A program made the position numbers and the translations under genes. From Escherichia phage RB3: a stretch of DNA of 64,000 nt. Location: sequence record KM606994. One strand, 5' to 3'. Numbering within the stretch: the stretch's first letter is position 1; each line of letters begins with the position of its first letter. The notes under the pieces were generated by a model. That model searched no databases and was not told the DNA's origin. It saw only the letters and a list, made by a program, of their open reading frames with translations. Shown piece by piece: positions 3,424 to 4,251 of this stretch.

Positions 3424-3499
3424 TGGTCGAGGCAGTAGGGATCGAACCTACGACCCAGGACTTAGAAGGTCCTTGCTCTTCCTTCTGAGCTATGCCTCG
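3424..3499 (-). tRNA. tRNA-Arg (anticodon UCU)
   Basis: Manual fold: acceptor CGAGGCA/TGCCTCG, anticodon loop CTTCTAA, T-loop GGTTCGATCC, encoded CCA. Confidence 0.85.
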
Positions 3500-3503
3500 T
3501 ATT

Positions 3504-3578
3504 TGGCGGACGTGATAGGATTCGAACCTATAACCAATCGCTTAACAGGCGATCGCTCTGCCATTGAGCTACACATCC
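3504..3578 (-). tRNA. tRNA-Asn (anticodon GUU)
   Basis: Manual fold: acceptor GGATGTG/CACGTCC, D-arm GCTC-AATGGCA-GAGC, anticodon loop CTGTTAA, T-arm ATAGG-TTCGAAT-CCTAT, CCA. Confidence 0.85.
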
Positions 3579-3582
3579 AAAT

Positions 3583-3669
3583 TGGTGGGGAGTGATGGAG
3601 TCGAACCACCCGAGTCGCAATGACAATGGATTTACAGTCCACACCGCTACCTCTACGGGATAACTCCCC
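3583..3669 (-). tRNA. tRNA-Tyr (anticodon GUA), class II with long variable arm
   Basis: Manual fold: acceptor GGGGAGT/ACTCCCC, anticodon loop CTGTAAA, long variable arm, T-loop TTCGACT, CCA; 87 nt. Confidence 0.8.
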
Positions 3670-3678
3670 TAATTAATT

Positions 3679-3753
3679 TGGTGGCCCTGGGTGGAATTGA
3701 ACCACCATCTGGCGATTATGAGTCGCTTGCTTGAACCTTCCAGCTACAGGGCC
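3679..3753 (-). tRNA. tRNA with CAU anticodon (Ile if lysidine-modified, otherwise Met)
   Basis: Manual fold: acceptor GGCCCTG/CAGGGCC, anticodon loop CTCATAA, T-loop GGTTCAATTCC, CCA; sits where T4 has tRNA-Ile. Confidence 0.85.
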
Positions 3754-3754
3754 T

Positions 3755-3830
3755 TGGCGCTGATTGACGGAATCGAACCGCCGACATCCTCATTACAAGT
3801 GAGGTGCTCTACCTACTGAGCTAAATCAGC
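3755..3830 (-). tRNA. tRNA-Thr (anticodon UGU)
   Basis: Acceptor GCTGATT/AATCAGC, D-loop TAGCTCAGTAGGTAGAGC, anticodon loop CTTGTAA, T-loop GGTTCGATTCC, CCA. Confidence 0.9.
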
Positions 3831-3835
3831 AAAAC

Positions 3836-3925
3836 TGGCGGAGGCGATAGGATTTGAACCTATGAGTCGCCGGAGCGACTGCCGGTTTTCAAGACCGGTG
3901 CATTAAACCACTCTGCCACGCCTCC
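3836..3925 (-). tRNA. tRNA-Ser (anticodon UGA), class II
   Basis: Acceptor GGAGGCG/CGCCTCC, anticodon loop CTTGAAA, long variable arm, T-loop GGTTCAAATCC, CCA; 90 nt. Confidence 0.9.
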
Positions 3926-3927
3926 AG

Positions 3928-4001
3928 TCTCCATACAAGGATTTGAACCTTGGACCTCCTGATCCCAAATCAGGCGCTCTACCAAACTGAGCTACACGGA
4001 G
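3928..4001 (-). tRNA. tRNA-Pro (anticodon UGG)
   Basis: Acceptor CTCCGTG/TATGGAG with G-U pairs, D-loop TAGCTCAGTTTGGTAGAGC, anticodon loop TTTGGGA, T-loop GGTTCAAATCC; CCA not encoded. Confidence 0.9.
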
Positions 4002-4011
4002 TAAATTAAAT

Positions 4012-4085
4012 TGGAGCGGATAATGAGAATCGAACTCACATCATCAGATTGGAAGTCTGAGGTAATGCCATTATACGATATCCGC
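4012..4085 (-). tRNA. tRNA-Gly (anticodon UCC)
   Basis: Acceptor GCGGATA/TATCCGC, anticodon loop CTTCCAA, T-loop GTTCGATTC, CCA. Confidence 0.9.
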
Positions 4086-4090
4086 AAATT

Positions 4091-4177
4091 TGGTGCGAGA
4101 AGTGGGACTCGAACCCACAAGGAAATCATTCCGCAGCATTTTAAGTGCTGTGCCTTTACCAATTTGACCATTCTCGC
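4091..4177 (-). tRNA. tRNA-Leu (anticodon UAA), class II
   Basis: Acceptor GCGAGAA/TTCTCGC, anticodon loop CTTAAAA, long variable arm, T-loop GGTTCGAGTCC, CCA; 87 nt. Confidence 0.9.
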
Positions 4178-4178
4178 G

Positions 4179-4251
4179 CTGGGAATAAAGGACTCGAACC
4201 TTTGCATCCTGGAATCAAAATCCAGTGCCTTACCAACTTGGCTAATTCCCA
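4179..4251 (-). tRNA. tRNA-Gln (anticodon UUG)
   Basis: Acceptor TGGGAAT/ATTCCCA, anticodon loop TTTTGAT, T-loop GGTTCGAGTCC; CCA not encoded; 1 nt from tRNA-Leu. Confidence 0.9.

Follow-up and report, generated by a model that had tools for sequence, protein, structure and literature searches.

The tRNA cluster of the textbook reference phage T4 (NC_000866, 70908-72530) has the order Gln-Leu-Gly-Pro-Ser-Thr-Ile-segB-Arg-rnaD-rnaC, in which segB, a homing-endonuclease gene of 666 bp, is located between Ile and Arg. A segB-free form of the cluster was mapped in T2L, RB1 and RB3 in 2008 (Brok-Volchanskaya et al. 2008, PMC2330249), and the tRNA regions of RB1, RB3 and T2L are deposited as EMBL entries AJ884577, AJ884578 and AJ880101, respectively. 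In the same study, the preferred 27-bp recognition site of SegB was mapped within the tRNA-Asn gene of T2L, it was demonstrated experimentally for T2L that SegB homing excludes the Met, Tyr, Asn and Arg genes, the tRNA region was called non-essential, and it was concluded that T4 had acquired segB recently (PMC2330249). Ten tRNAs have also been listed for RB5, and the similarity between RB3 and RB5 is 99.99% (PMC4293622).

In addition to these maps, there are direct reports on the function of phage tRNAs. It has been reported that tRNA-Tyr of T6 rescues infection from Septu, from which T4, having no tRNA-Tyr, cannot escape (Chihara et al. 2026, PMC13096335); the native single copy of T6 was insufficient, escape required SegB-driven amplification, and T6 tRNA-Tyr was itself cut by Septu (PMC13096335). 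T5 belongs to an unrelated phage family and has 24 annotated tRNA genes, each group with its own promoters; its tRNA-Tyr acts against retron-Eco7 (PMC11555353), and its tRNA-Lys, tRNA-Thr and tRNA-Asn act against PARIS, tRNA-Asn being merely a secondary target of the AriB nuclease (PMC12409363).

The window analysed here, that is, the whole stretch of 64,000 nucleotides, is the same as positions 63993-127992 of RB5 (KM606995) with 0 mismatches, and its sequence is also identical in RB6, RB7 and RB10. The window is thereby connected with the 2008 map through its identity to RB5 and the reported 99.99% similarity of RB3 to RB5 (PMC4293622). The RB5 record, from which the window does not differ, already annotates all ten tRNAs together with rnaD and rnaC; RB14 agrees with it in both the set and the order of its tRNAs, and RB5, RB6, RB7, RB9, RB10 and RB14 are annotated genomes with this type of cluster. 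That is to say, the ten-tRNA cluster is already known, its sequence, its tRNAs and the comparison with T4 having all been covered by GenBank and by publications of 2008, 2015 and 2026. In comparison with T2L, the CAU, Asn and Arg tRNA genes are 100% identical, whereas the window retains tRNA-Thr and is missing trna.1 and trna.2, two extra ORFs of T2L. The gene order, the location of rnaD and rnaC after Arg and the absence of segB are those of the segB-free operon of RB3/T2L type, and the genomic position is as in T4, between e.8 and tRNA.2. It can be said with high confidence that the locus is the segB-free tRNA operon of RB5, a T4-like phage of the species Tequatrovirus RB3, related to that of T4 by a cassette replacement and with putative functions both in translational supply and in anti-defence.

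When ARAGORN was run on the whole 64-kb window, exactly ten tRNA genes were obtained, all of them on the minus strand between 3424 and 4251, in the following transcription order:

4178..4251, minus strand: tRNA-Gln(UUG); ARAGORN, Rfam 67.4 bits, annotated in RB5; CCA not encoded
4091..4177, minus strand: tRNA-Leu(UAA), class II; ARAGORN, Rfam; identical to T4 tRNA-Leu
4012..4085, minus strand: tRNA-Gly(UCC); ARAGORN, Rfam, sequence comparison
3927..4001, minus strand: tRNA-Pro(UGG); ARAGORN, Rfam; CCA not encoded
3836..3925, minus strand: tRNA-Ser(UGA), class II; ARAGORN, Rfam; CCA encoded
3755..3830, minus strand: tRNA-Thr(UGU); ARAGORN, Rfam, sequence comparison
3679..3753, minus strand: tRNA with CAU anticodon, best read as tRNA-Ile2; ARAGORN, Rfam, E. 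coli matches
3583..3669, minus strand: tRNA-Tyr(GUA), class II; ARAGORN, Rfam 30.2 bits, covariation; no counterpart in T4
3504..3578, minus strand: tRNA-Asn(GUU); ARAGORN, Rfam 74.1 bits; no counterpart in T4
3424..3499, minus strand: tRNA-Arg(UCU); ARAGORN, Rfam

The same ten genes were recovered with Rfam RF00005, each with a cloverleaf and with a score above the gathering cut-off of 29 bits (range 30.2-74.1); nine of them reach 59-74 bits, and Tyr alone is low. The earlier note, made from the sequence, had the order of the ten and the anticodons that it gave all correct, and its Tyr and Asn tRNAs are both called by ARAGORN; its spacers of 1-9 nt came close to the 0-10 nt of the ARAGORN coordinates. 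No ORF was found between the tRNA genes of the cluster. Elsewhere in the window, an extra ORF (31975-32625) has no Pfam match, and its PHROGs match is to a family of unknown function only.

The tRNA with the CAU anticodon is best read, from its sequence, as a tRNA of the Ile2 (lysidine) type, which would read AUA rather than the Met codon. Its top matches in E. coli are, in 5424 of 5426 genomes, tRNA-Ile(CAU) genes with about 80% identity, and one of these genes annotated as tRNA-Ile has the very same anticodon stem-loop, AGCGACTCATAATCGCCA, whereas its identity to the Met and fMet tRNAs of T5 is 49-51%. The orthologue is annotated as Ile in the RB14 and RB18 records. In the acceptor stem (GGCCCTG/CAGGGCC), the C4-G69 and C5-G68 pairs are both present, and these two pairs are reportedly determinants for TilS. 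The Met identity, which is the label given by ARAGORN and by the RB5 record, was rejected on the similarity to E. coli tRNA-Ile(CAU) and the low identity to Met tRNAs.

The authenticity of tRNA-Tyr also deserves consideration, since the gene could be a pseudogene or a false positive, in which case the true count would be nine. Its Rfam score is just above the cut-off, owing to a poor D-stem in which a C12.C24 mismatch is conserved, and a T5-like homologue is labelled as a pseudogene in one record. However, the gene is called by ARAGORN, and pairing amounts to 96-100% in its acceptor, anticodon, variable and T helices, where compensatory changes also occur: in an alignment of seven homologues, leaving out that of Karamvirus VPA32 (not called by ARAGORN, and with 1 nt inserted in its D arm), 91.7% of the cells pair and eight pairs are altered in both partners, values attained by 0 of 500 shuffles. 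Moreover, the T6 version, which is 2 nt apart (97.7% identity, with an identical variable arm), has been detected on northern blots, and its expression rescues infection (PMC13096335). On the ARAGORN call, the covariation and the published expression of the T6 orthologue, the artefact or pseudogene explanation was rejected as very improbable. As for the other relatives, tRNA-Tyr of T2L differs by 1 nt, and that of T5 has 78% identity overall, with no difference in the stretch that extends from the variable arm to the end of the T arm.

Downstream of Arg, the cluster is continued by the two stable RNAs and a hairpin, and a promoter-like sequence lies upstream of Gln:

4321..4345, minus strand: candidate T4-type middle promoter (ATGCTTTA, 12 nt, TATTAT); consensus match only
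3302..3422, minus strand: rnaD (species 2 stable RNA); RB5 annotation and blastn, 86% identity to T4 rnaD
3158..3296, minus strand: rnaC (species 1 stable RNA); RB5 annotation and blastn, 98.6% identity to T4 rnaC
3084..3107, minus strand: intrinsic-terminator-like hairpin followed by a T run; consensus match, 10 pairs, 7 of them G-C

The 3′ domain of rnaC is tRNA-like according to ARAGORN, and the hairpin is located about 50 nt downstream of rnaC. From its match to the consensus, the hairpin (3107-3084) is likely to be the end of the transcription unit. At the other end, the candidate middle promoter lies about 70 nt upstream of tRNA-Gln, and the annotation of phage SA21RB includes a similar site. 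However, with 22 matches versus 19.3 expected, the window shows no enrichment of the MotA-box pattern, nor is there an excess in the sigma-70-like promoter scan (8 sites versus 7.6 in shuffles), so that the site at 4321..4345 is regarded as a candidate only. By analogy with T4, transcription of the ten tRNAs, rnaD and rnaC, arranged head to tail, most likely yields one polycistronic precursor or a small number of them, from which the mature tRNAs would be released through cutting by host enzymes.

The T4 cluster is on the same strand as that of the window, in the same order and with the same flanks (e.8 on one side and tRNA.2 to tRNA.4 on the other), and its Gln-to-Thr part is 97% identical, although T4 tRNA-Ser has TAA where the window encodes CCA, and the anticodon arm of T4 tRNA-Gln is unlike that of the window. 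The main difference lies between the CAU tRNA and Arg, where T4 has segB in place of Tyr and Asn, so that it carries eight tRNAs and the window ten; the T4-type arrangement, with segB between tRNA-Ile and tRNA-Arg, is not that of the window. As the earlier note had it, the tRNA repertoire differs from that of T4, which has eight tRNAs and not the same ten, Tyr and Asn lie between the CAU tRNA and Arg, and the stable-RNA region follows Arg. Its placing of the stable RNAs of T4 between Ile and Arg was mistaken: segB is found there, and since rnaD and rnaC follow Arg in T4 as in the window, the stable RNAs have not moved, and a relocation relative to T4 was rejected. The breakpoints of the replacement and the putative SegB site are as follows:

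3478..3741, no strand assigned: block without detectable homology to T4; blastn breakpoints 3742 and 3477
3502..3528, no strand assigned: preferred SegB recognition site, 27 bp, approximate and inferred; runs from GGTTCGAATCC to CCAA on the minus strand

The block of 264 bp takes in Tyr and Asn together with the larger part of the CAU tRNA and the 5′ portion of Arg, and its T4 counterpart of 794 bp takes in segB together with the larger part of tRNA-Ile and the 5′ portion of T4 tRNA-Arg. The homology breakpoints fall within the flanking tRNA genes. T4 tRNA-Ile and tRNA-Arg are other genes than those of the window, with 61% identity to the CAU tRNA and 50% to Arg, respectively; this had been overlooked in the earlier note. 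No segB was found in the window, where tblastn with T4 SegB matches only the paralogue segE (43520-44050, 31% identity).

From its 100% identity to the tRNA-Asn of T2L and the published description of the site (PMC2330249), the tRNA-Asn of the window is inferred to carry the preferred SegB site. In segB-free phages, the preferred cut of SegB falls inside tRNA-Asn, and homing overwrites the Tyr/Asn block, as was demonstrated for T2L; the T4 cluster is most likely the product of such a cassette replacement, with Ile-segB-Arg in place of CAU-Tyr-Asn-Arg. It is rather probable that the repertoire difference is a by-product of selfish segB homing, by which the ancestral genes for Tyr and Asn were overwritten in the line leading to T4, and has no adaptive meaning. 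In favour of this are the breakpoints inside the flanking tRNA genes, the preferred site in tRNA-Asn with the exclusion of the block by homing, and the recent acquisition of segB by T4 concluded by the 2008 authors (PMC2330249), as well as the location of segB at other sites in RB18 and T6 and the absence from this phage of T4 segC and segD. However, homing accounts for the origin of the difference and not for the function of the genes, and in this respect it is compatible with the preferred reading of a segB-free operon with supply and anti-defence functions. Moreover, seven phages share one and the same tRNA-Asn sequence, and the changes in tRNA-Tyr keep its structure, which argues that both are under selection.

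Contiguous Tyr and Asn genes are found in about 394 phage records and the T4-type Ile-segB-Arg in about 131, with Gln-Leu-Gly being present in 445 records; Tyr plus Asn is the majority arrangement, and T4 is the minority case. Some relatives additionally carry tRNA-His.

As for the demand for these tRNAs, the E. coli codon reference was one 50-kb region rich in ribosomal-protein genes rather than the whole genome, and relative to this sample Tyr, at 1.87 times, is the most enriched of the 20 amino acids and Asn, at 1.46 times, the second, AAT and TAT rank first and third in codon excess, and eight of the tRNAs read A-ending codons that are 1.4-5.3 times commoner in the window. The enrichment of Asn is slightly greater still in the late structural genes of the plus strand (62.5 versus 50.6 per thousand). 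By these figures, the tRNAs would add decoding capacity for an A+T-rich phage, and the extra tRNAs fit a supply rationale, which is equally valid for T4: over 44 orthologous genes, the codon usage of the window and of T4 is correlated with r = 0.999, TAT being 33.7 versus 32.8 and AAT 43.3 versus 42.2 per thousand. The different codon compensation that the earlier note had thought possible therefore finds no support, since the added anticodons correspond to the amino acids most over-represented against E. coli but not to any shift from T4, and a codon-usage shift was rejected as the cause of the repertoire difference. As the codon usage is the same in T4, the repertoire difference tracks whether or not the segB cassette is present; and as T4 grows without Tyr and Asn tRNAs at the same codon usage, both are dispensable on laboratory hosts.

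It is unlikely that Tyr and Asn are kept purely for the decoding of Tyr and Asn codons, with no anti-defence role. The enrichment of the two amino acids, the excess of their codons and the somewhat greater Asn enrichment in the late structural genes all agree with such a role in supply, but T4 has identical demand and yet is missing both tRNAs, and the addition of tRNA-His in relatives, although no amino acid is more depleted than His (0.60 times its value in the host), cannot be accounted for by supply. In addition, tRNA-Tyr of T6 and T5 and tRNA-Asn of T5 have been directly shown to counter tRNA-cleaving defences.

By analogy with T6 and T5, the phage tRNAs would replace host tRNAs destroyed by Septu and retron-Eco7 (Tyr) and by the AriB nuclease of PARIS (Asn and Thr). 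The tRNA-Tyr of the window is both an isoacceptor of a nuclease target and nearly identical to the rescuing T6 tRNA, while for tRNA-Asn only the first of these holds, as it shares G39 with T5 tRNA-Asn at just 60% identity overall. T6 has tRNA-Tyr in the same genomic neighbourhood, with segB directly downstream of it, but is without Pro, Ser and Asn tRNAs, and its Ile is of the T4 type; the window phage, in contrast, has no segB and hence no SegB-driven amplification.

It is possible, though doubtful, that the tRNAs are mainly counter-defence cargo, that is, that Tyr and Asn (and His in relatives) chiefly replace nuclease-destroyed host tRNAs and that codon fit is secondary. Besides the experiments with T6, T5 and SP15, this is consistent with the 5-nt variable loop of tRNA-Tyr, which is as in T5 (the host has 3 nt), and with the occurrence of this tRNA-Tyr gene, with 82-96% identity, in phage groups that are not related to one another (Vequintavirus, Tequintavirus and Klebsiella phages). 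At the AriB site, tRNA-Asn has C31-G39 where the host has A31-U39, and G39 breaks the UAAU motif, as in T5 tRNA-Asn. The Tyr, Asn and His tRNAs also all have GUN anticodons, which are the targets of colicin E5 (PMC1635277). On the other side stand the insufficiency of the single native copy of T6 and the cleavage of its tRNA-Tyr by Septu, the merely secondary targeting of tRNA-Asn by AriB, and the host-like UCCGU arm retained by some Klebsiella phage tRNA-Asn genes. A further step, by which the tRNA-Asn(GUU) of Tequatrovirus would be nuclease-resistant and the Tyr/Asn/(His) module would be counter-defence cargo destroyed by segB homing, is speculative and rather improbable; the published support covers the Tyr part of the cargo idea only. 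If it were true, there would be a conflict between the homing endonuclease and the anti-defence genes of the phage itself.

Like tRNA-Tyr, the tRNA-Asn of T-even phages may be protective against tRNA-cleaving defences. The textbook reference T4 is the exception: most sequenced T4-like coliphages have Tyr and Asn tRNAs, and T4 is without them most probably because a homing endonuclease overwrote both.

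Ten tRNA genes, all located on the minus strand at 3424–4251, were predicted by ARAGORN over the whole 64-kb window, and their transcription order is Gln(UUG), Leu(UAA), Gly(UCC), Pro(UGG), Ser(UGA), Thr(UGU), a tRNA with the CAU anticodon (CAU tRNA), Tyr(GUA), Asn(GUU) and Arg(UCU). The Rfam tRNA model recovers the same ten genes, each over the gathering score, and the coordinates, order and anticodons of the earlier note are thus borne out. The spacers between the genes are 0–10 nt, and CCA is encoded in eight of the ten. The Rfam scores are 59–74 bits for nine genes and 30.2 for Tyr, against a cut-off of 29; the low score of Tyr is due to its poor D-stem, in which a C.C mismatch is seen in the cloverleaf drawings. 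When the Tyr gene was aligned with six homologues (T2L, T6, a Vequintavirus, a T5-like phage, a Klebsiella phage and E. coli tyrT), pairing was present in 91.7% of cells and both sides had changed in eight pairs; this level was reached by none of 500 shuffles, and sliding the partner gave 44–60% pairing. The proposed Tyr and Asn cloverleaves are supported, both being called by the two programs and the Tyr pairing being backed by its homologues. As for the Ser gene, CCA is encoded at its 3′ end (3836–3838, minus strand), where T4 has TAA, so CCA addition should be unneeded, unlike for the Ser tRNA of T4.

The ten-tRNA feature is already known and annotated. The entire window corresponds to RB5 (KM606995) 63993–127992 with zero mismatches, 3000–4400 is 100% identical in RB5, RB6, RB7 and RB10, and the RB5 record annotates all ten tRNAs, followed by two stable RNAs:

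3302–3422, rnaD (RB5 annotation), 86% identical to T4 rnaD
3158–3296, rnaC (RB5 annotation), 98.6% identical to T4 rnaC

The genome announcement counts ten tRNAs in RB3, RB5, RB6, RB7, RB9, RB10 and RB27, eight in the T4-like RB33, RB55 and RB59, and nine in RB68 (PMC4293622). A strong hairpin with a T run lies at 3107–3084, about 50 nt downstream of rnaC, and a candidate promoter that fits the T4 middle-promoter consensus is located at 4345–4321, about 70 nt upstream of Gln, the frequency of this pattern in the window not being above that of shuffles. In addition, the 3′ part of rnaC (3157–3251, minus strand, about 94 nt) has a tRNA-like fold: the acceptor stem is 8 bp long, the T arm (CCGGG TTCGAAT CCCGG) is perfect and the loop sequence CUUUUAA matches the anticodon loop of tRNA-Lys(UUU). 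ARAGORN calls it only under relaxed settings; its counterpart in phage G4507 (stretch L006, 1013–1106), 1 nt shorter, is called, and its annotation is tRNA-Lys(ttt).

The cluster of the T4 reference (NC_000866) runs Gln, Leu, Gly, Pro, Ser, Thr, Ile, segB, Arg, rnaD and rnaC, where segB is a 666-bp GIY-YIG homing-endonuclease gene. The earlier note had given eight tRNAs for T4, which ARAGORN confirms, and stable RNAs between Ile and Arg, which is incorrect: segB occupies that place, and rnaD and rnaC follow Arg in both phages. The claimed difference in repertoire, ten genes with Tyr and Asn against eight, holds. Pairwise blastn showed 97% identity to T4 from 4700 to 3742, that is, from upstream of Gln into the CAU tRNA, whose leading 12 nt are included; homology returns at 3477, in the tRNA-Arg anticodon loop, and runs to 2900 at 92%. 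The intervening block has no homology and measures 264 bp in the window, compared with 794 bp in T4. In keeping with this break, identity to T4 Ile is only 61% for the CAU tRNA and identity to T4 Arg only 50% for the Arg tRNA, so that both are different genes from those of T4; in T2L, the CAU, Arg and Asn tRNAs are 100% identical to those of the window and Tyr differs by 1 base, while T6 tRNA-Tyr differs by 2 bases. In the window, tblastn with T4 SegB matched only the paralogue segE (43520–44050), segB being absent.

Other differences from T4 were also observed. Homing-endonuclease genes are more numerous in T4 than in this genome: segE is kept (43466–44083), segC and gene 5.3 are missing at 12254/12255 between 5.1 and 5.4, segD is missing at 38615–38697 between genes 23 and 24, and segB is likewise lacking. 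Genes 18 and 19 are 763 bp apart in the window and 116 bp apart in T4, and a 216-aa ORF filling this interval (31975–32625, plus strand), without annotation in the RB5 record, is therefore inserted with respect to T4; the ORF has zero Pfam matches and matches phrog_5104 (unknown function, E = 1e-90). In the anticodon arm of tRNA-Gln (4209–4225, minus strand), four of five stem pairs differ from T4 and all are still complementary (CUGGA/UCCAG in the window, UAGCA/UGCUA in T4); the loop differs at positions 32 and 38 (UUUUGAU and CUUUGAC, respectively) and the remainder of the gene is identical, which looks like allelic replacement of the arm.

The Met identity given to the CAU tRNA by ARAGORN and the RB5 record was set aside, since it resembles E. 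coli tRNA-Ile(CAU) and not the Met tRNAs of T5. Full-length matches occur in 5,424 of 5,426 complete E. coli genomes, with tRNA-Ile annotation throughout among the matches listed; one such gene has the CAU anticodon, an identical anticodon stem-loop and 80% overall identity, against 49–51% for the elongator and initiator Met tRNAs of T5. The acceptor stem carries C4-G69 and C5-G68, which we take to be TilS determinants, and the orthologue is annotated as Ile in RB14 and RB18. The CAU tRNA is thus read as an Ile2-type tRNA, which would decode AUA, a codon 3.75 times commoner in the phage than in the E. coli sample. One E. coli match, in the EC1 chromosome (L011, 2768714–2768989), lies within a tRNA-Ile/tRNA-Arg/tRNA-Arg cluster adjoining a DNA methyltransferase gene, and this cluster looks prophage-borne rather than core ileX/ileY.

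The tRNA regions sequenced by Brok-Volchanskaya et al. (2008, PMC2330249) were those of T2L, RB1 and RB3, all without segB, and the same authors noted that segB is missing from RB6, RB7, RB8 and RB9 too. The 27-bp site preferred by SegB was mapped by them within the tRNA-Asn gene; GGTTCRANTCC, a T-arm motif, forms its start, and it often finishes at CCAR. They also found that in T4 × T2L co-infection segB homes at nearly 100% efficiency, excluding the block coding Met(CAU), Tyr, Asn and Arg. Because the Asn gene of the window is identical to that of T2L, the window has the SegB site too, at roughly 3502–3528. The SegB cleavage motif reported for T6, RAWTSGAAC, has 14 copies in the window, where 5.85 would be expected (0 of 100 shuffles reach 14), and the copies at 3171, 3519, 3770 and 4027 are T-arm sequences in rnaC, Asn, Thr and Gly.

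Of the records in the phage collection, 394 contain the contiguous Tyr+Asn segment (coverage 80% or more), 445 the common Gln-Leu-Gly segment and 131 the T4-type Ile-segB-Arg junction; thus the ten-gene set is usual and T4 exceptional. Relatives vary: RB18 has segB where Pro would be and an added tRNA-His, G4507 and SA21RB have eleven tRNAs each, His among them, T2L has an ORF where Thr would be, and T6 runs Gln, Leu, Gly, Thr, Ile, Tyr and then segB.

Codon demand was compared between 76 window genes (RB5 coordinates) and 70 E. coli K-12 genes, the latter all from one 50-kb region in which ribosomal-protein genes abound. In the phage, the A-ending codons of the eight "T4-set" tRNAs are 1.4–5.3 times commoner; among the 20 amino acids, enrichment is greatest for Tyr (1.87 times), followed by Asn (1.46 times), and AAT ranks first and TAT third in absolute excess, so a supply rationale suits the Tyr and Asn tRNAs. 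The different codon compensation envisaged in the earlier note is unsupported, as usage in T4 is the same over 44 orthologous genes (r = 0.999), with TAT at 32.8 and 33.7 and AAT at 42.2 and 43.3 per thousand in T4 and this phage, respectively. Depletion is strongest for His (0.60 times), so demand cannot account for the tRNA-His of some relatives.

Several bacterial defences cleave tRNAs. Septu cuts tRNA-Tyr within the variable arm; T6 is rescued by expressed T6 tRNA-Tyr and sensitised by deletion of its tRNA region, T4, without tRNA-Tyr, cannot escape, and escape mutants amplify tRNA-Tyr along with segB (Chihara et al. 2026, PMC13096335). Retron-Eco7 is countered by T5 tRNA-Tyr (Azam et al. 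2024, PMC11555353), and PARIS is blocked by T5 variants of tRNA-Lys, tRNA-Thr and tRNA-Asn jointly (PMC12409363). The variable arm of the window tRNA-Tyr is the same as that of T6, and from variable arm through T arm the gene is identical to that of T5, with a 5-nt loop against 3 nt in the host. The 85-nt tRNA-Asn(GUU) genes of the Klebsiella phages VPA32 (L020, 40–124) and K65_evo1 (L021, 233–317) have a long extra arm, unusual for tRNA-Asn, and both keep a host-like anticodon arm, that of E. coli tRNA-Asn. The window tRNA-Asn, invariant across seven Tequatrovirus sequences, has C31-G39 where the host has A31-U39; T5 tRNA-Asn also has C31-G39, though it is 60% identical overall, and this pair suggests resistance to cleavage. 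As a candidate reading only, the T-even tRNA-Asn may be a defence-resistant variant, and segB homing may remove anti-defence tRNAs.
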